In this document: positions 1,938 through 23,850 of the stretch, piece after piece | Layout: the number at the start of each line of letters is the position of its first letter | Numbering within the stretch: position 1 is the stretch's first letter | Assembly: GCA_903844735.1 (NCBI GenBank) | Contig: CAIMUX010000121.1 | Span: forward strand, 3,005 to 67,004 | Reading direction: 5' to 3' | Source of the DNA: Candidatus Eiseniibacteriota bacterium | Lineage (GTDB): Bacteria; Eisenbacteria; RBG-16-71-46; CAIMUX01 | DNA: 64,000 bases | Notes under the pieces: generated by a model | What the model was told of the DNA's origin: nothing | The model's input: the letters and a program-made list of their open reading frames with translations, nothing else | Databases searched by the model: none | Made by a program: the position numbers and the translations under genes

Positions 1938-3421
1938 TCCCAGCGCAGCTTCAGCGCTCGCGCCGCTCCCGCTTCGTCCAGCCTTCCCACCGGCGTCCAG
2001 TGCGGCGACGTGGCAAGAACCTCGGGACAGCTCCGCGCCTCTTCCGCGATGTTGCGCAGGCTGACGGCGAACGAATCGAGGCTCGCGCGCGACTCCGTCT
2101 CCGTCGGCTCGATCATGAAACAATCGGGCACGATGAGCGGAAAGCTCACCGTCGGAGCGTGGAAGCCGTCGTCGAGGAGCCGCTTCGCCGCATCGATGTT
2201 TTTCACCCCGAACTTGCGCATCCAGGCCAGCGAGGTGACGAACTCGTGCAGAAACGGGCCCGGATGTGAGGCCGGGTAGTCATCCTCGACTTGCTTGGCC
2301 AGGTAGTTGGCGTTGACGATGGCGCCGCGGCTGACCTCGGCCAGCCCTTCGGGGCCGAGCGAGCGCAGGTAGGCGTAGGCGCGCAGAATGATCCCGACAT
2401 TGCCGAAAAACGGGTGCAGCCGTCCGACCGAGTCCGGCGCCTCCTCGATCCAGCGAAAACGGTCGCCCTCCTTCACCACCCGCGGCACCGGCAGGAACCG
2501 CGCCAGCGCAGCCTTCACGCCGACCGGACCCGAACCCGGACCGCCCCCGCCGTGCGGCGTGGAGAACGTCTTGTGCAGGTTGATGTGGACGATGTCGGCG
2601 CCAATGTCACCGGGCCGCACCAGCCCCACGAGAGCGTTCAGGTTCGCCCCGTCCATGTAGACGAGCCCGTCCACCGAGTGGATCAGGTCGGCCATCTCCT
2701 GGAAGCGCGTCTCGAAGAGGCCGACCGTATTCGGGTTCGTAACCATGATTCCCGCGACATGCAGGCCGATCCGCGAGCGCAAGCGGTCGAGGTCGAGTCG
2801 CCCGTCCGGGCCGGATGCGACCTCCTCGACGTCATAGCCCACCAGACGCACGGTCGCCGGGTTCGTGCCGTGGGCCGAGTCGGGAACGAGGATGGTGGTC
2901 TTGGCGTTCTTCTTTGCCTGGTGATACGCACGGACGAGCTTGATCCCCAGCATCTCCCCCTGCGCTCCGGCCGCGGGATGCAGGCTGATCTCGTCCATCC
3001 CCACCACCGCCGCCAGCTCCCGGGAGAAGTCCCACAGGAGCTCGAGCATTCCCTGACAGGCCTCAGCCGGAGCCAGCGGGTGCAGCGCGGCGAGATCGGG
3101 GCGGCCGCTCAGTTCCTCGTTGATCTTGGGGTTGTACTTCATCGTGCAGGAACCGAGCGGATAGAGCGCCTTGTCAACATGGTGGTTGAGGCTCGACAAG
3201 TTGATGTAGTGGCGCACGACCTCGGGCTCGTTCACGGCAGGCAGGTGCGCGGCGACCTGCCGACGCGTCGCGCCAGGCAACAGCGTGCCCGGATCCTTCC
3301 GCGGGACTTCCATCGGGGGCAAGCGATACCCCGCAGCCCCGGGCGTGTCCTTCTCGAAGATCACTGGGACATTCTTGCGGCGTTTGCGCACGAGGATGTC
3401 GCCCTCACATTGATTGTCCAC
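1922..3421 (-). CDS. gcvPB: Glycine dehydrogenase (decarboxylating) subunit 2
   Basis: Motifs YPLGSCTMKYNP, SAHGTNPA, NLHKTFSTPHGGGGPG (PLP Lys) and MIEPTETES. Start uncertain; GTG at 3421 has GGAGG upstream. Confidence 0.96.
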   Translation of the reverse strand: MDNQCEGDILVRKRRKNVPVIFEKDTPGAAGYRLPPMEVPRKDPGTLLPGATRRQVAAHLPAVNEPEVVRHYINLSSLNHHVDKALYPLGSCTMKYNPKINEELSGRPDLAALHPLAPAEACQGMLELLWDFSRELAAVVGMDEISLHPAAGAQGEMLGIKLVRAYHQAKKNAKTTILVPDSAHGTNPATVRLVGYDVEEVASGPDGRLDLDRLRSRIGLHVAGIMVTNPNTVGLFETRFQEMADLIHSVDGLVYMDGANLNALVGLVRPGDIGADIVHINLHKTFSTPHGGGGPGSGPVGVKAALARFLPVPRVVKEGDRFRWIEEAPDSVGRLHPFFGNVGIILRAYAYLRSLGPEGLAEVSRGAIVNANYLAKQVEDDYPASHPGPFLHEFVTSLAWMRKFGVKNIDAAKRLLDDGFHAPTVSFPLIVPDCFMIEPTETESRASLDSFAVSLRNIAEEARSCPEVLATSPHWTPVGRLDEAGAARALKLRWEWPSR

Positions 3422-3434
3422 AATTCCTCCCACA

Positions 3435-3476
3435 GCTTTCGGGCTTCAGGCTTCGGGCTTCGGGCCTCGGACTTCC
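3435..3476. repeat. Heptamer array (GGCTTCG consensus, about 6 units) in the gcvPA-gcvPB spacer
   Basis: gctttcg-ggcttca-ggcttcg-ggcttcg-ggcctcg-gacttcc. Confidence 0.85.
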
Positions 3477-5323: not shown

Positions 5324-6442
5324 CTATTTGTGAGACGCGTGCTTGTAGAATGGGCGCTCCACCACGCGGGCGGGCACCTTGGCACCCCGGATATCCACTT
5401 CCAGCTCCGTACCCACCGCCGAAAGCGCCGGCGGCACGAATCCGAGCCCCATCCCCTGCTTGAGTGAAGGGCAGAACCCACCGCTGGTCACGATGCCAAC
5501 CTCACGGCCACCGACAAAAAGCGCCTGGCCATGGCGGGGCATCCGCTGCCCCTCCACCGCGAAACCGACGATCGAGCGCGTGAGACCCGCCGCCTTCTGG
5601 GCCGCGAGCGCGTCCTTGCCGATGAAATCGGTCTTCTTCATCTTGACGGTCCAACCGATGCCGCCCTCGAGCGGGCTCACATCCAGGTTCAGTTCGTTCC
5701 CGTAGAGGCAGTAGCACATCTCGAGGCGCAGTGTGTCGCGGGCACCGAGGCCGATGGGAGCGGCGCCGATCGATTCGCCCGCGTGCAACAGAGCCCGCCA
5801 TAGATCCCGCGAGCGTCCGGAGGATACGTAGATCTCAAAGCCGTCTTCGCCGGTGTAACCGTTACGTGAGACCACAACGTCCTTGATACCCGCCACCGTC
5901 GCTACGAGGAACCGGTAGTAACCGATGGTGTTGAGATCCGCCGCGACCAGCGGACGGATGACCTCTTCGGCCCGCGGCCCCTGGAATGCGAGCTGGGCCA
6001 GTTCTGTGCTCCGATCGTTCACCTCTACCGGCGGGCCCACCCACGCCAGCGCCCGCGTCTCCATCCAATCCCAAATGCGGCTCAGGTTGCCTGCGTTGGC
6101 CACCACCATGACACGGTCGGCCATCCGATAGACGGTCACGTCGTCCAAGACACCGCCGTCCTCACGGCACATGGCGGCATAGAGAAGCTGCCCCGGCTCG
6201 GCCTTCTCCAGGTCGTTGGTGATGAGATCGTGGACAAAAGGAACCGCACCCGGACCGGTGACTTCGAAGCGCCCCATATGGGACACGTCGAACAGCCCCA
6301 CCGCGGTGCGAACGATCTCGTGCTCGCGAAGAATCCCGGTCGGATACTGTACCGGCATTTCCCATTGGTTGAAGTCCACCAACTTGGCCTGGTGGTTGAC
6401 ATGCTCGTGGAACAACGGAGTCCGCTTGAGATTACCGCCCAT
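5324..6442 (-). CDS. gcvT: Glycine cleavage system aminomethyltransferase T
   Basis: LFDVSHMG, GYTGEDGFE and GLGARDTLRLE; GGAGG upstream. Confidence 0.98.
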   Translation of the reverse strand: MGGNLKRTPLFHEHVNHQAKLVDFNQWEMPVQYPTGILREHEIVRTAVGLFDVSHMGRFEVTGPGAVPFVHDLITNDLEKAEPGQLLYAAMCREDGGVLDDVTVYRMADRVMVVANAGNLSRIWDWMETRALAWVGPPVEVNDRSTELAQLAFQGPRAEEVIRPLVAADLNTIGYYRFLVATVAGIKDVVVSRNGYTGEDGFEIYVSSGRSRDLWRALLHAGESIGAAPIGLGARDTLRLEMCYCLYGNELNLDVSPLEGGIGWTVKMKKTDFIGKDALAAQKAAGLTRSIVGFAVEGQRMPRHGQALFVGGREVGIVTSGGFCPSLKQGMGLGFVPPALSAVGTELEVDIRGAKVPARVVERPFYKHASHK

Positions 6443-6656
6443 GCACCCCTCCTCCCATCATCCTGGACCCGATCAGCTATGGACGGTACCACATCGGAGG
6501 GCCTCGCATCCAGGGCCACGTGCAGCGGCGCGTCCGCGGTCCGGGCCGCGGGATTCGATCGCAACGGGTTGGTTGGGCTTGCCTCGTCGTACGCAAGAAC
6601 CTCGTAACTCACTTCCCACAAGAACTTTCCGCCCTGGTGATCCACACCGAAATCGA

Positions 6657-7001
6657 ATGGAAACACTGACATCGTCGCTCACCGACCGCTTCCGGGCGAT
6701 GCTTCTGTCCCGGACCGATCCGGCTTTGGAGAACGCGGTCTTGCGCCGGCAACTCACGATCTTCCAGAGGAATCTGAAGCATCCACGATCTCGAATCAGG
6801 GATCGCGTCTTGTGGGTCGTCCTCCGCAGGCTCGGGTCGGCGTGGGGGCAGATTTCTCGACTCCTCGTTCGCAATCACGACGGCGTTTTCGGGCGGTCCG
6901 GCAGATGTCCACCAAGGCTCTACCGAATCGATCCGAAAACCCACACCGGGCAACACCCGCCGGCTATACTTCCGCTCCTCAACGGCTACCGCTCGTACTG
7001 A
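6657..7001 (+). pseudogene. Internally deleted remnant of an integrase-core (rve/DDE) transposase
   Basis: ALENAVLRRQLTIFQR..PRSRIRDRVLWVVLRRL resembles the N-terminus of integrase-core IS transposases, and LLVRNHDGVFG resembles their YLIRDRDGIYG motif. Only about 114 aa remain. Similarity is recalled, not searched. Confidence 0.6.
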
Positions 7002-9166
7002 AACACCGTCACCGGCACCGAGCTAGCCTCCGACATCCCATAGAACCGCCCGAGTTGCTCAAACAGTTCCGCCAGCCCTTCCTCGTCCCGCGCCGTCGAC
7101 CAGAGCACTTTCACAGCCGTGCCGCAATGCCCCTGCTCAATCTCCTCGACGCCCGGTAGGGTCGCAAGGATCGTCCCATGCATACCAAGGCGCCGCAGGA
7201 TGAGGTACGCCGTGAGGAACTCGGGTTGCCGCCCCGGGTCGAACTGGACGAAAGTCTCGAGCGTGCGCTCTCCTCGCTTGAGGGCGCAGAGGACCTGCAA
7301 CTCCAGCGTCGGCGTGAGAGCGAAAGTTCGTCCCAGGAGGTCGGCCTCGCCGTCGGCGGCATGCCCCGCCAGGCCACTTTCCGCCTCTGCCACCAGACGG
7401 TCGCGGAGCCGCTCGTCCACCTCGGGGAAGGCGCCCAGGGGAGCGTCGGCCGCCCGCAAGAGCCAGCCTGCGGCGTCGAGCAACAGGTCCACCCGCCGCG
7501 GATCCAGCTCCACGCGGTGGGCACGCAGGAGGTCCAGAAGCGTCTCGAGGTGGTGAGCCGTTCCGGCTGCGGCCTCCGCCTCCAGCATGGTAAAGTCACC
7601 CTTGGCCGCATGCAGGCGCCGGAACGCCTCGTGCAGCGGCTCGATCTCACCGGGGTTCGATTCCAGGTCGAGGAGCGACTCCTGCAGCTTCTGGAGGCTT
7701 TGCCGGAGTTCCGAGCGCAGTTCCTCGGCATCGGCGGCCTGGAGGTGCAGCGTCGCGCCGGCGGACGCCGCGGCTGTGGCTTCGCTCACGCCGGCGGCCC
7801 TGGCTCCAGCGCCGGCCCCGGCCTTCGGCCCAGCCCCGGCCCCGGAGCTTTCGCCCTGCCCGCCCGACCGTTCCCGCCTCGCACCCGAAACAGATGCGGT
7901 CCCCAATCCCGACTCGCCTCCCGTCGGCCCGCTTCCGACCGCACCCCCATCGCCAAGCGCCTCCGAGGCCAGAGCATCGACATTGAGGGTCAATCCGAGT
8001 CGGCCCCCGGTGAAGACCGCGGTCCCCGCGATGGCGCGCGCCCGGTCCCAGGTGCCGTTGAGCGGAACATTGACGAGCTTCTGAGGCCCGAGGAACTCGG
8101 TGATCGAAAGGGCGATGCGGCCTGCCTTCCCCTGGACCACGACCACCGGAATGGGATCGGGCTTTTCCTCTGCCGGTGGTTCGCCCAGGAGATCGAGGAG
8201 ATCGTGCAGGACCAAAGGCTCGCCCCGATGCGTGAAGTAACGGCCTCGCCCGAGAGCATTCTTGACCTGTGCCGCGTTGACTGCGAGCGAGGAAACGACA
8301 TGTTCGATCGGCAGTGCGAACAACCGGTGCCCGGCGCGCATCGTCAGGGCATCGACGATGTTCACAGCGCGCAGCTTGGGCACGGTGAGCCGGAAGATCG
8401 TCTCCTGCCCCAGTGTGGTTTCCACCGCCACCGTCCCACCGAAGTCCTCCACGGTGGTGCGCACGAGGTCGAGCCCGACGCCGCGCCCTGAGGTGGCGGT
8501 CACCGCCGCGGCCATCGAAAACCCGGGTCGGCAAAGGATGTCAGCGAGGCTCGCCCCTTCCACGGGCAGGCCGCGAGAGAGCGCCTCCGCCCGCACCGCC
8601 TCGGCATCGATGCCGCGCCCGTCATCGGAGACCGCGATCTCGGTGTGATGCTCGCGATCCACGGCCGTGACGGTAACCCTTCCCTGCGGCGGCTTCCCGG
8701 CCCGCGCGCGCTCGAGAGGTGCTTCCAGGCCGTGGTCGACCGCGTTGCGCAGAAGGTGAAGCAGCGGGTCGACCAGCCGCTCGGCAAGAGCCTTGTCGAC
8801 GAGGGTCTCCTCTCCCTCGAAAAGAAGCTCGGCGTCACGTCCGAGCGTGCGGACCAGATCGCGTACCGGGCGGCGGAAAAGGCGCAGGGTCTCGCCGATT
8901 TCCACCAGACGGATCGCCATGACCAGATCGTGCAAATCCTGACTCACGCGCCGCGACGCCTCGTTGCTGGTCTTGACCACCTCGAGGCTCTCCGGCCGCA
9001 GTACCTGCCCGAGCGTCACCGATTCCCGCACGCGCCGCTCCAACTCCTGGAGGTTCGCACTGGTGATGATCACTTCTCCCGCGAGCGAGAGGAGACGGTC
9101 GAGGTGCGTGATACGCACCTGCATTCGGTCGATGGTGCCTCGCCGCACCTGCAGCAGCTCAGTCAT
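6986..9166 (-). CDS. cheA: CheA-family histidine kinase with permuted domain order (dimerisation-HATPase-CheW-HPt-P2-like)
   Basis: N-terminal VRITHLDRLLSLAGEVII (P3); HLLRNAVDHG, DDGRGI and SGRGVGLD (P4); CheW-like P5; then AFRRLHAAKG (HPt) near the C-terminus. Start at ATG 9166. Confidence 0.9.
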   Translation of the reverse strand: MTELLQVRRGTIDRMQVRITHLDRLLSLAGEVIITSANLQELERRVRESVTLGQVLRPESLEVVKTSNEASRRVSQDLHDLVMAIRLVEIGETLRLFRRPVRDLVRTLGRDAELLFEGEETLVDKALAERLVDPLLHLLRNAVDHGLEAPLERARAGKPPQGRVTVTAVDREHHTEIAVSDDGRGIDAEAVRAEALSRGLPVEGASLADILCRPGFSMAAAVTATSGRGVGLDLVRTTVEDFGGTVAVETTLGQETIFRLTVPKLRAVNIVDALTMRAGHRLFALPIEHVVSSLAVNAAQVKNALGRGRYFTHRGEPLVLHDLLDLLGEPPAEEKPDPIPVVVVQGKAGRIALSITEFLGPQKLVNVPLNGTWDRARAIAGTAVFTGGRLGLTLNVDALASEALGDGGAVGSGPTGGESGLGTASVSGARRERSGGQGESSGAGAGPKAGAGAGARAAGVSEATAAASAGATLHLQAADAEELRSELRQSLQKLQESLLDLESNPGEIEPLHEAFRRLHAAKGDFTMLEAEAAAGTAHHLETLLDLLRAHRVELDPRRVDLLLDAAGWLLRAADAPLGAFPEVDERLRDRLVAEAESGLAGHAADGEADLLGRTFALTPTLELQVLCALKRGERTLETFVQFDPGRQPEFLTAYLILRRLGMHGTILATLPGVEEIEQGHCGTAVKVLWSTARDEEGLAELFEQLGRFYGMSEASSVPVTVFQYER

Positions 9167-9572
9167 GGTGTAACACCCTCGCAATCACACGGGCCAGGAA
9201 TTCCCGGTCGAACGGCTTGGGAATGTAGTCGTCCGCCCCGAGCTTGAGGGCGCGGACCACGCTCTTCGCGTCACTCTGGGTGGAGACCATGACCACCGGC
9301 GTGCGATCGTACCAGGATGCCTGGTGCAGCCGGGCGCAGAACTCGAAACCGTCCATGCGCGGCATGCTGATGTCGCAGAAGATGAGCCCGGCGGCGTGCG
9401 GATTGCCCTCGAGAAGGTCAAGTGCGATGCGGCCGTCCCCCGCCTCGATCACGTCGAGGCCGAGCGGTTCGAGGTGTGACCGGAAGATACGGCGCGTGGC
9501 CGTGGAGTCATCAATGACTAAGGCGCGCGTCCCGGGAACCAGGACCGTCGCCACCTCGTTCGACCAGCTCAT
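9159..9572 (-). CDS. Single-domain response regulator (CheY-like receiver)
   Basis: LVIDDS, FCDISMPRMDG (phospho-Asp), VST and YIPKPF; GGAGG upstream of ATG 9572; overlaps the cheA start. Confidence 0.93.
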   Translation of the reverse strand: MSWSNEVATVLVPGTRALVIDDSTATRRIFRSHLEPLGLDVIEAGDGRIALDLLEGNPHAAGLIFCDISMPRMDGFEFCARLHQASWYDRTPVVMVSTQSDAKSVVRALKLGADDYIPKPFDREFLARVIARVLHHD

Positions 9573-9621
9573 GCCGGAACCCTCCCATCGCTGCCGCAAG
9601 GGCGAACCGCCCCCTCAGGGA

Positions 9622-9649
9622 CTATCGGCCGGCGGGCGACGGGACTTGC
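9622..9649 (-). promoter_or_regulatory. Putative sigma28 (FliA/SigD)-type promoter for the receiver-cheA pair
   Basis: Minus strand reads GCAAG-N15-GCCGATAG, close to the TAAA/TCAAG-N15-GCCGATAA consensus, 50 nt upstream of the start codon. Confidence 0.55.
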
Positions 9650-9679
9650 GGATTCCGGTCGGAAGTCGGGCGGTGACGA

Positions 9680-9780
9680 TTCAGGTAGTCAGAAGCGAGA
9701 AGTCAGAAGCCAGAAGTCCGAAGTCAGGAATCAGAATGAGGACACTCCTCGACGAGATTTGAGGAGTTGGGGGCGTGGCA
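9680..9780 (-). repeat. Dispersed ~100-bp intergenic element, copy 1 (hairpin core plus heptamer array)
   Basis: The reverse complement of 9731-9780 matches 23751-23800 at 45/50 positions, and both continue into TCTGAC(T)-type heptamer arrays. Confidence 0.9.
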
Positions 9781-9909
9781 AAAGACCCATCCGTATGCGC
9801 TTGGGGCCTACGGTTTGTCTCGGCAGTCCTCCGATCCGAAACGTATGGACTATCGTCTCGATCTCGGCCCGCTGTCATCGTGAATTCCTGCTCCTGAACG
9901 ACTCGATTC

Positions 9910-11673
9910 TCATCCAAGCCGCTCGGACGGCCGCCGAAGGCCATGCACCCGAACCCGGCTGTGAAGATGCTGTCGGCTGATGCCCAGATCCTTCGCGGCG
10001 CGCGTGATATTCCAGTTGTGGCGGCGAAGCACCGTTTCCAGCATCTCCCGCTCGAACTGGCCCGAAGCCTCCTGGAGCGTCCCCTCCGACGACGGCGGAA
10101 CATCCTCCGGTGTGAGGTCGGAGAGCTGCATCCTAAGCTGCGCCTCGTCAACTTGCTTGCCATCGGGAACCAGGGCACAAGCCCCTTCGATAACGTACCG
10201 GAGTTGGCGGACATTCCCGGGCCACGAGTACGTGAGAAGTAACGTTCGCGCCCGATCGGTGAGGCCGTTGATGCGCCGGGGCGAGCGCCGGATCGCCTCC
10301 GCCAGGAAGTGATCCACGAGGAGCGGGAGGTCTTCGCGTCGATCACGCAGCGGAGGCAGCTCGAGACGGATGCCGGCCAAGCGGAAATACAGGTCTTCGC
10401 GGAACGACCGGTCCTTCACCATCGCCCGGACATCGGCATTCGTGGCGGAGACAACCCGCACATCGGCCCGGCGGGTCTCGCTTTCCCCCACCCGACGGAA
10501 TTCGCCGCTTTCCAGAAAGCGAAGCAGCTTCACCTGCATCTGGGGCGGCATGTCGCCTACCTCGTCGAGAAAGAAGGTGCCCCCGTCGGCCTGCTCCACC
10601 AGCCCCGGGTTGTCCTGCACTGCGCCGGTGAACGCCCCGCGGCGATGGCCGAAGACGAGGCTGTCGAGAAGCTCCGCGGGAAAGCCGGCGCAGTTGACAG
10701 GGACGAACGGTCCGCCCTTGCGCAGCCCCTCGGTGTGGAGCGCTCGTGCCACCAGATCCTTGCCGGTACCGCTCTCGCCGAGAAGCAGGACCGGGATGTC
10801 GGTGTCCTTCAGCAGCCGGATCCGATCAAAGAGCGTGGTCATCGCCGGGCTGCGACCGAGCATACGCGCGAAGCCGGTCCCGGCCTGCGCCTCCGCCCGC
10901 AGGGTCTCGTTCTCGCGGGTCAGCAATAGGTGCGCTTCCTCCAGCCGACGCAGCTCACGCGCGTTCATCAGGCAGACAGCAGCCTGCGAGGCAAACGCCT
11001 CCAGGAATGGGATCTCCTGTGGGGTGCTTCGCAGGCCGGGTACCGAGCTGTCGAGGTAGAGCACGCCGCGGGGCGCACCATGCTCGCGGAGCGGCACGCA
11101 CACGGCCGCGTAGGTGTCCAGGGCCCGAATGGAGCGCGCCTCACGCAGCTCGGGAAGAAAGGCCGTGTTCTCCACCGGGATGACGCGGTTCTCGCGCAGG
11201 CACGCGCGGGCCAACGTCTCGGAAACGGTCGAGGCCTCCGGCGCCAATACTTCCCGGGCCGCCCCCCGCGCCTGCACTACCCGAAGGTGACCATGGTCCT
11301 CCACCAGAAGAAGGCCGCGTTCCGCGCCGCTGAGCACGACCGCGCCGTCGAGAACCGCCTCCAACAGCCGGTCCGGGTCTAGGATGGAAGAGAGCTCGCG
11401 CGAGATTTCCAGCAGTCGCCAGAGCCCCTGGCGCTCTCTCTCCAAAGCGGCCGCGACCTCGGCCTCTTCGGCCCGCGCCTGGGCGAGAAGCCCTCGTTCT
11501 TGCGGAGAGACTCCGACGCGGCGCTGCAGGAGGGCCGCCGGGCCGGTCGGCGGCGACGCCATTTCCGGCGACGCGATCTTCGGCGGCGATGCGACTTCCG
11601 GCAAAGGACGAGGAACGGAGACCGGTGGCGGCGTCACGTTGTCGCTACTGCTCTCGAACTCATGGAATCCCAC
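9910..11673 (-). CDS. Sigma54-dependent transcriptional activator (GAF + AAA+ + Fis-type HTH)
   Basis: GAF region (AAVCVPL..GVLYLDS), Walker A GESGTGKD, GAFTGA, FFLDEVG, WPGNVRQL and HTH NITRAAKDLGISR. Confidence 0.94.
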   Translation of the reverse strand: MGFHEFESSSDNVTPPPVSVPRPLPEVASPPKIASPEMASPPTGPAALLQRRVGVSPQERGLLAQARAEEAEVAAALERERQGLWRLLEISRELSSILDPDRLLEAVLDGAVVLSGAERGLLLVEDHGHLRVVQARGAAREVLAPEASTVSETLARACLRENRVIPVENTAFLPELREARSIRALDTYAAVCVPLREHGAPRGVLYLDSSVPGLRSTPQEIPFLEAFASQAAVCLMNARELRRLEEAHLLLTRENETLRAEAQAGTGFARMLGRSPAMTTLFDRIRLLKDTDIPVLLLGESGTGKDLVARALHTEGLRKGGPFVPVNCAGFPAELLDSLVFGHRRGAFTGAVQDNPGLVEQADGGTFFLDEVGDMPPQMQVKLLRFLESGEFRRVGESETRRADVRVVSATNADVRAMVKDRSFREDLYFRLAGIRLELPPLRDRREDLPLLVDHFLAEAIRRSPRRINGLTDRARTLLLTYSWPGNVRQLRYVIEGACALVPDGKQVDEAQLRMQLSDLTPEDVPPSSEGTLQEASGQFEREMLETVLRRHNWNITRAAKDLGISRQHLHSRVRVHGLRRPSERLG

Positions 11674-19185: not shown

Positions 19186-19340
19186 GGCTTCGGGCTTCGG
19201 GCTTCGGACTTCACGCTTCGGGCCTGAAAGCGTCGAGCCGTCTCGGCATGCCACGAATCAACTCGCCGTACCGGGCCACGGGTTCGGCGTGGTCCCCCGC
19301 ACTCATGGTCTGCCGTCCCGAAGCCTGAACTCCAAAGCCT
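19186..19340. repeat. Element bounded by inverted heptamer arrays
   Basis: Left arm (ggcttcg)x3-gacttca-cgcttcg-ggcctga at 19186-19227; right arm cccgaag-cctgaac-tccaaag-cct at 19317-19340, in the reverse-complement orientation. Confidence 0.7.
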
Positions 19341-23727: not shown

Positions 23728-23850
23728 GACTCCGGAGTCAGAATTCAGAATGCCACACCACCAAGTCCTCACATCTCGTCGAGGAGCGTCCTCATTCTGA
23801 CTCCTGACTACTGGATTCTGACTCCTGACTTCCGGCCTCTGATTACTGAA
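23728..23850 (+). repeat. Dispersed ~100-bp intergenic element, copy 2, with a short inverted heptamer arm on the left
   Basis: Homologous to the reverse complement of 9680-9780. Left arm GGAGTCAGAATTCAGAAT can pair with right arm ATTCTGACTCCTGACT. Lies between convergent clpP and mdh. Confidence 0.9.

Follow-up and report, generated by a model that had tools for sequence, protein, structure and literature searches.

A CheA family with P1 and P2 located after P5, and its dedicated receiver partner

Is a gene in which the five domains of the chemotaxis kinase CheA follow one another as P3-P4-P5-P1-P2 a real gene, is its product a CheA-class kinase, and with what does it work? The question is raised by positions 6986 to 9166 of a 64,000-nucleotide stretch of DNA from Candidatus Eiseniibacteriota bacterium (the window; positions 3,005 to 67,004 of contig CAIMUX010000121.1, assembly GCA_903844735.1), where an original prediction made from sequence alone had described a circularly permuted cheA, its P1-P2 block moved to the C-terminus within one uninterrupted reading frame. 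We find that this observation is real and was correctly read: the gene belongs to a family of permuted CheAs that has a dedicated receiver and is without receptor or adaptation genes, and the system is of a well-known kind.

Gene and domain organization

The reading frame is uninterrupted from 9184 to 6986 on the complementary strand and would specify 732 amino acids from a TTG codon. The ATG at 9166 is the start shared by the homologs in our family alignment A1 (28 sequences, 43–93% identity) and gives a 726-amino-acid protein (P0001); a GAGGG sequence 9–13 nt 5′ of it agrees with that start. Pfam domain calls were judged by the curated bit-score cut-offs, and all five CheA domains pass in the 726-residue protein.

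6986..9166, minus strand: permuted cheA, 726 aa plus stop, start ATG 9166 (reading frame, translation, Pfam)
8912..9118, minus strand: P3 domain for dimerization (H-kinase_dim, PF02895), residues 17–85, 30.6 bits against a cut-off of 23
8375..8770, minus strand: P4 ATP-binding kinase domain (HATPase_c, PF02518), residues 133–264, 61.9 bits against 26.4
7961..8350, minus strand: P5 CheW-like domain (PF01584), residues 273–402, 50.0 bits against 23.5
7724..7960, minus strand: Gly/Ala/Ser-rich tether between P5 and P1, residues 403–481 (from composition)
7475..7723, minus strand: P1 histidine phosphotransfer domain (Hpt, PF01627), residues 482–564, 33.1 bits against 24.6
7253..7474, minus strand: P1-P2 linker, residues 565–638, between the Pfam Hpt and P2 matches
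7007..7252, minus strand: P2 response-regulator-binding domain (PF07194), Pfam residues 639–703, 30.0 bits against 23

This Pfam mapping bears out the predicted layout throughout. The protein does begin directly at the dimerization helix and continues with the ATPase and CheW-like domains; the long Gly/Ala linker is there (79 residues, with 21 Ala, 21 Gly and 9 Ser), and the Hpt domain carries the intact histidine that had been placed at 7610–7612, a CAT codon for His519 within the HxxKG motif of AFRRLHAAKG (from residue 514). The terminal segment that had been likened to P2 comprises residues 650–678, inside the Pfam P2 match, and the conserved P2 block extends beyond the end of that match to about residue 720. 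In the canonical order P1 and P2 precede P3; here both follow P5. Only 16 residues precede P3, and the receiver gene upstream shares its last 8 nt, stop codon included, with the start of cheA (ATGACTGA), so there is no room for an N-terminal P1.

Comparison with known structures gives the same order. Pairwise alignment with Escherichia coli CheA (6S1K_A) pairs query residues 14–400 with residues 263–641 and query residues 488–574 with residues 17–103, and such an alignment in two segments, out of order, is the classical signature of a permutation. Profile A2, built from the last 260 residues of 21 sequences from two clades of the family, was searched against the PDB and matches the P1 domain of Thermotoga maritima CheA (2LD6, E 2e-21; 1TQG, E 4.7e-21), the enteric P1 structures 8C5V and 1I5N (both E ~1e-13) and the T. 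maritima P2 domain (1U0S_A, E 2e-4), so the C-terminal region, whose failure to score as Hpt and P2 had been named as grounds for doubt, does score as CheA-type P1 and P2.

Integrity of the reading frame

The suspicion that the gene is an assembly chimera, or two genes fused by a sequencing error, draws on the low-complexity Gly/Ala linker at 7724–7960, since assemblies tend to break in such places, and misassembly over about 7750–7980 had been raised with the original prediction. Logan contigs of public sequencing runs were therefore placed on positions 6900–9700. A contig of run X3, which comes from the same study as a possible source run, spans 6900–9125 with no differences; two contigs of X4, from another study, cover 6900–7880 and 7852–8260, the second of them crossing the P5/linker boundary at 7960/7961; and 7438–7905, from P1 into the linker, is covered by a contig of X7, which belongs to a third study. 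The linker is thus bridged by contigs of three studies, and no contig joints within 6900–9700 were reported among the public-run contigs.

The stronger argument is the conservation of the reading frame. Eighty genomic loci were fetched with the family alignment, 40 with permuted genes (L001–L040) and 40 with canonical CheAs (L041–L080), and the frame is intact in 39 of the first 40. A further 11 loci from Nitrospinota-labeled metagenome-assembled genomes (MAGs) all have one continuous frame of about 700 codons. Among the resulting 51 independent permuted loci, which come from several phyla, the frame is therefore continuous in 50. The permuted gene is not an assembly artifact, and the chimera reading, to which we give practically no credence, is already refuted.

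An RNA-library contig spans 9115–9440, across the boundary between the receiver gene and cheA; this is a weak hint only, and the RNA-library contigs (X11) are too few for a claim of expression.

Catalytic residues and sequence conservation

The ATP-binding motifs and the phospho-acceptor histidine are conserved. The P4 motifs HLLRNAVDHG, DDGRGID, PGFS and SGRGVGLDLV, which are the N, G1, F and G2 boxes, respectively, align with their E. coli CheA counterparts and vary little or not at all among the A1 sequences. In P1, His519, Lys522 three residues further on and Glu541 of the HxLET motif are invariant in A1, and the histidine and the HxLET glutamate are invariant also in A2, which includes a more distant clade. 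P5 aligns over its full length with E. coli P5 and has many residues that are invariant in A1.

Mean pairwise identity in A1 is 0.67 for P3, 0.58 for P4, 0.51 for P5, 0.56 for P1 and 0.57 for P2, as against 0.40 for the P1-P2 linker (residues 576–630) and 0.21 for the tether (residues 403–476), which also varies in length from 47 to 86 amino acids. Since P1 and P2 are conserved to the same degree as the core and the tether far less, the two displaced domains are constrained to the same extent as the catalytic core; the P5-P1 tether probably behaves as a flexible linker. The planctomycete subclade (Planctomycetaceae and Thermoguttaceae rows, A1 columns ~500–535) has a conserved charged segment in the tether just before P1, which is absent from the window protein.

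The permuted family and its distribution

The window gene has many relatives with its layout. All but one of the 120 best database proteins are collinear with the query over at least 96% of its length, at 44–100% identity. The Pfam order of the window protein recurs in all ten sampled homologs (labeled Eisenbacteria, Krumholzibacteria, Deltaproteobacteria, Thermoguttaceae, Planctomycetaceae, Planctomycetales or unnamed); H-kinase_dim is found in every one of them, and Pfam P2 is above its cut-off in eight. The 40 permuted loci of the first set have 0–51 residues before P3 and 293–343 after P5; the canonical loci mostly have at least 140 residues before P3. In a set of 1.84 billion representatives (50%-identity clusters), 14 of the best 150 matches to the tail are proteins of 684–771 amino acids that carry the whole tail at the C-terminus, and in all 12 of these that were checked the core begins within the first 25 residues.

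Forms that could represent steps to or from the permuted arrangement were sought. No split between a core and a P1-P2 gene was found among the 51 permuted loci. Two candidates for such a split were rejected: P0137 (262 aa) had the appearance of a P1-P2 protein on its own, but each of its 11 genomic relatives in the Nitrospinota MAGs has the continuous ~700-aa frame, and in L032 an apparent 406-aa frame ends at a frameshift that sits inside P5 and not at a domain boundary. The 245-aa representative P0136 starts at P1; a search for its locus gave none. Nor was a P1-P2-core-P1-P2 intermediate present among five longer tail-profile matches (P0130, P0225, P0255, P0263 and P0265), which Pfam shows to be canonical multi-Hpt CheAs.

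In a tree built from the core alone (P3-P4-P5), 41 permuted and 42 canonical rows are separated by a single branch with a Shimodaira–Hasegawa-like approximate likelihood ratio test (SH-aLRT) support of 99. The separation is retained, with a support of 100, in an enlarged tree of 64 permuted and 47 canonical rows, which adds the Nitrospinota clade, twelve distant representatives and the five canonical CheAs whose P1-P2 are closest to the tail. Both are unrooted trees from quick LG+G4 searches. The permuted core also has substitutions of its own. Position 79 (codon 8930–8932), in the P3-P4 junction motif that reads LQExVMxIR in canonical CheA, is occupied by His in all 52 permuted sequences, against Gln in 40 of 42 canonical ones, and Met15 is fixed in all 52 permuted sequences. 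The trees are consistent with one origin of the permuted family, which is not thereby proven; we regard the family as conserved, cross-phylum and probably monophyletic.

The permuted CheAs fall into three clades. Clade A holds the window protein together with members from Planctomycetaceae, Thermoguttaceae (including a Thermogutta terrifontis MAG, L013), Fibrobacteraceae, Deltaproteobacteria and unclassified bacteria; clade B comprises Phycisphaerae, Sedimentisphaerales, Pirellulales, Sumerlaeota and one complete chromosome; and the Nitrospinota group is the third. The whole tail occurs in 6 of the 206 species genomes of the window's phylum. In the phylum of genome G003 it turned up in 4 of 401 sampled genomes, with six candidates scored per genome, and in G003's own family 22 of 201 sampled genomes have it. 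Public databases already contain the permuted proteins under automatically assigned names: JGI labels them CheA, and at NCBI they appear as "chemotaxis protein CheW," "ATP-binding protein," "Hpt domain-containing protein" or "hypothetical protein."

The partner receiver and the surrounding genes

Immediately upstream of permuted cheA lies a small receiver gene, preceded in turn by a spacer.

9159..9599, minus strand: single-domain CheY-like receiver (Pfam Response_reg, 94.9 bits; TTG at 9599, likely start ATG 9572)
9600..9909, no strand: spacer upstream of the two-gene operon, with a period-7 tandem array at 9687–9736

The acidic pocket of the receiver, its Asp76, Ser/Thr106–107 and Lys128 are invariant in receiver alignment A3, and an aromatic residue is conserved at the position that corresponds, in CheY numbering, to Tyr106. 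A homolog of this receiver lies directly upstream of permuted cheA at 37 of the 51 loci (26/40 in the first set and 11/11 in Nitrospinota), and two of the 14 loci that have no adjacent receiver have less than 300 nt of upstream sequence. In the non-adjacent cases an ortholog (193–203 bits) is present on another contig in four of five genomes; for scale, the window receiver scores 198 bits and the next receiver of the same genome 92. Across the 206 genomes of the window's phylum, with an ortholog threshold of E ≤1e-35 and 20 candidates scored per genome, the receiver ortholog and the tail have identical distributions: the same six genomes, and within them the same contigs. The receiver is thus dedicated to the permuted CheA, being either linked to it or co-occurring with it.

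The other neighbors in the window (a sigma-54 activator, an FG-GAP protein, a glycosyltransferase, gcvT and gcvH) showed no conserved adjacency to the module at the 40 loci of the first set, so the conserved unit is the receiver plus the permuted CheA. A third gene of about 300 codons does lie directly downstream of cheA at all eight clade B loci (L033–L040, e.g., L039:10107–11027) and, with weaker matches, at 9 of the 11 Nitrospinota loci (L084–L094); Pfam recognizes only a C-terminal receiver in its product, and neither clade A nor the window has the gene.

This third gene bears on another way of reading the C-terminal Hpt. Hybrid or unorthodox kinases of the ArcB and BarA type have a DHp histidine, an internal receiver and a C-terminal HPt domain as the third relay step. 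A C-terminal HPt is usual in such kinases, and like theirs the Hpt of the permuted protein lies C-terminal to the catalytic domain; with a second receiver-containing gene directly downstream in two of the three clades, the domain might be a relay station that takes its phosphate from a receiver and not directly from P4. But the permuted kinase has no receiver fused to it by Pfam, its Hpt is a CheA-type P1 with HxxKG and HxxE motifs and is followed by a P2 docking domain, and P3 has no other conserved histidine to accept the phosphate: the candidate considered, His21, occurs in 44 of the 52 sequences, and clade B has Arg or Ser in its place. We think the relay reading highly improbable, and direct phosphorylation of P1 by P4 is the reading we carry forward.

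A regulatory link to the neighboring sigma-54 activator was considered and set aside, as the activator is not conserved beside the module. The spacer at 9600–9909 contains no match to a sigma-54-type promoter, and the 58 matches in the whole window are at chance level (50.9 expected). One weak sigma-70-like site lies at 9878–9849 in the spacer.

The period-7 array of this spacer is one of four such arrays of 5–7 copies in intergenic spacers of the window (3438–3475, 9687–9736, 19186–19223 and 23797–23830), and the window has six matches to CTTCTGACTTC with at most one mismatch, where 0.77 are expected. On the other side of the module a 543-nt spacer (6443–6985) separates the cheA stop from gcvT. 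No Rfam family was matched in 6300–10000, and so no glycine riboswitch was detected in 6443–6985, upstream of the glycine-cleavage genes.

Receptors and other chemosensory genes

Genes for CheW, CheR and CheB are absent from the flanks of all 51 permuted loci (569 kb in all), and a gene resembling a methyl-accepting chemotaxis protein (MCP) is found in four of them. In one locus, L010, an MCP gene lies directly upstream of the module on the same strand. The source genome does have receptors and coupling proteins (nine MCPsignal matches, and stand-alone CheW genes on contigs C6, C73 and C79) as well as FliM; at the 51 loci only the receiver gene is linked to permuted cheA. It also holds two other CheAs, on contigs C79 and C64, and at least one further CheA is present in each of the five other holder genomes checked. 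Within genus g17, holder G026 and non-holder G028 alike have two stand-alone CheW genes and one other CheA each, so that no dedicated coupling protein comes along with the module. A similar comparison of CheW counts between the source genome and G006, a species of the same genus, singled out no partner, the chemosensory set of the source genome being much larger overall.

These surroundings fit a kinase that shares a resident array and equally one that needs none. The second case would be an active kinase that works without chemoreceptors as part of a soluble two-component system, its P5 vestigial or bound to some other partner. The flanks empty of CheW, CheR and CheB, the scarcity of MCP genes in them and the equal CheW counts of G026 and G028 are what such a kinase would lead one to expect. 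Against it stand the conservation of P5 (mean identity and invariant residues as given above) and its full-length alignment with E. coli P5, the further CheAs in the holder genomes checked and in the source genome, which has MCP and CheW genes too, and the MCP gene beside the module in L010. We judge a receptor-free kinase unlikely, and prefer a P5 that is coupled to arrays encoded elsewhere.

Several other chemosensory genes of the source genome deserve a record. The C79 CheA has two CheW domains and a fused receiver and is part of a cluster (C79:100000–116000, L082) with genes for CheY, a STAS protein, an MCP, an MCP-hemerythrin protein, CheB and CheR. The CheA of C64 (L081) has 942 amino acids, of which an N-terminal region of 340 residues has no Pfam domain. 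On C73 (L083) a soluble MCP with six HAMP_2 repeats adjoins CheW and FapA genes. Two frames of about 385 codons, C80:89215–89982 and C95:23293–24045, have a CheW match that is cut in half (profile positions 1–65 and 65–136) by about 115 extra residues, and similar genes occur in G006 and G010.

Relationship to known CheA architectures

All five domains are common to the permuted protein and to canonical CheA (E. coli 6S1K; T. maritima 1B3Q, 2LD6 and 1U0S), which has them in the order P1-P2-P3-P4-P5. The two share the CheA-specific P3, the nucleotide-binding motifs of P4, the CheW-like P5 and, in P1, the HxxKG histidine with a downstream glutamate; the P2 is of the T. maritima type (PF07194). 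They differ in that the permuted protein has P2 at its extreme C-terminus and P1 hanging from P5 instead of P3, in the family's own substitutions (His79 for Gln) and in the lack of clustering with cheW, cheR and cheB.

Two other known arrangements come close. In the split or bipartite CheAs (CheA3 and CheA4 of Cereibacter sphaeroides, or an Hpt encoded by a separate gene) P1 is likewise not joined to the N-terminus of P3, and function is expected all the same (Berry et al. 2023), whereas in the permuted protein P1-P2 and the core form one polypeptide. CheAs with several Hpt domains, those of the Tfp and ACF classes (ChpA), also have a non-canonical Hpt arrangement around an invariant P3-P4-P5 core; according to PMC10782961, their extra Hpt domains are N-terminal to the core and a receiver is C-terminal. 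The permuted protein differs from them in its single Hpt after P5 and the absence of a fused receiver.

We found no description of a CheA with P1 or P1-P2 after P5 in the searchable full-text literature, though an earlier mention is possible (Wuichet and Zhulin 2010; Wuichet et al. 2007). The broadest survey of CheA architectures (Berry, Andrianova and Zhulin 2023, PMC10782961) calls P1 N-terminal throughout its accessible text, which mentions neither a permutation nor Planctomycetes; its figures or supplementary tables may list the architecture, and in the same text Wuichet and Zhulin (2010) are reported to have found that Hpt and P2 are not always in the same configuration. From 111 Pfam architectures that include a CheW domain, Vass et al. 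(2022, bioRxiv), in the part available, left out rare ones and analyzed the 12 major ones of CheA. The consulted part of the MiST 4.0 paper is silent on domain order, and the accessible part of Hamer et al. (2010, PMC2829493), which was considered as a precedent, deals with permuted gene order and is irrelevant here.

Proposed mode of action

Taken together, the sequence comparisons make it likely that the window gene encodes a bona fide CheA-class kinase that arose by an ancient cyclic move of P1-P2 to the C-terminus, and that its P1 is phosphorylated and hands the phosphate to the receiver. In the mechanism that we propose, the P1-P2 module would have been shifted from the N-terminus to the C-terminus in a cyclic rearrangement. 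The protein would dimerize through P3, and P4 would transfer the γ-phosphate of ATP to His519 on P1, which would reach the P4 active site by way of the flexible tether of 47–86 residues hanging from P5. The terminal P2 would dock the co-transcribed receiver, which would then take the phosphate on Asp76. P5, finally, would link the kinase to arrays of chemoreceptors and CheW whose genes lie elsewhere in the genome, and the two-gene unit would in that case act as an extra branch attached to a chemosensory system already present. The receiver could possibly act through protein-protein contact, for example with the flagellar motor. That P1 need not be joined to the core in the usual place is suggested by Berry et al. 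(2023), according to whom a liberated Hpt domain is fully functional and bipartite CheAs with the Hpt on a separate gene exist; P1-core connectivity may therefore not be critical.

Several observations weigh against this reading. P2 falls slightly under the Pfam cut-off in two of the ten sampled homologs, and both NCBIfam CheA equivalog models score far below their cut-offs (NF041336, 267 against 950; NF007835, 213 against 793), matching only the core; we attribute the failure of these models to the domain order. The trees are quick ones, and their canonical rows are those most similar to the query and so a biased sample of CheA classes. Coupling to receptors would rest only on the conserved P5, as there are no CheW, CheR or CheB genes and few MCP genes in the flanks. 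The distribution is patchy, with the proportions of genomes given above, and the closest sampled species, the same-genus G006 (92% complete), is without the module. Finally, two members appear damaged: the frameshift of L032 lies at L032:9056–9086, so that locus looks broken, and a member in G033 (G033:C103:9861–10619) has an in-frame TAG in its tail. These two lesions may be sequencing errors or decay.

The patchiness and the two damaged members would be at home in a catalytically dead paralog, kept as a scaffold or in the course of decaying. Such a gene would hardly be expected to hold its ATP-binding boxes and its phospho-acceptor histidine invariant in 28 sequences that diverge to 43% identity, and again in a distant clade, or to have its frame intact at 50 of 51 loci, and we think this explanation very unlikely. 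The active, CheA-class kinase thus remains our preferred reading.

A bolder version of it is that the receiver and the permuted CheA constitute a chemosensory class of their own, in which a satellite kinase encoded by a mobile two-gene unit inserts through P5 into resident arrays, and that attachment of P1-P2 to P5 alters the way in which receptors gate the access of P1 to P4. We put this forward tentatively, as a possibility that we would not ourselves expect to hold.

Significance

The original prediction had not recognized this architecture, and the family exposes a gap in annotation. The NCBI CheA models miss the family, whose members are named as CheW, ATP-binding or Hpt domain-containing proteins, so that a survey built on the assumption of an N-terminal P1 may misclassify them. 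One of the holders, Thermogutta terrifontis, is a cultured species, and experiments may thus be feasible.

Although few bacterial signaling proteins have been studied as thoroughly as CheA, how P1 is delivered to or withheld from P4 inside receptor arrays is still debated. A conserved permuted family would mean that the covalent connection of P2 to P3 has been dispensable over long evolutionary times, and the permuted CheA offers a ready comparison for models of cis and trans phosphorylation and of the kinase-off state. If the satellite-kinase proposal were true, the family would amount to an experiment of nature on connectivity, of the sort that structural models of CheA on/off switching require. 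In either case it may serve as a natural test of how much the connection of P1 to the core matters in the control of CheA.

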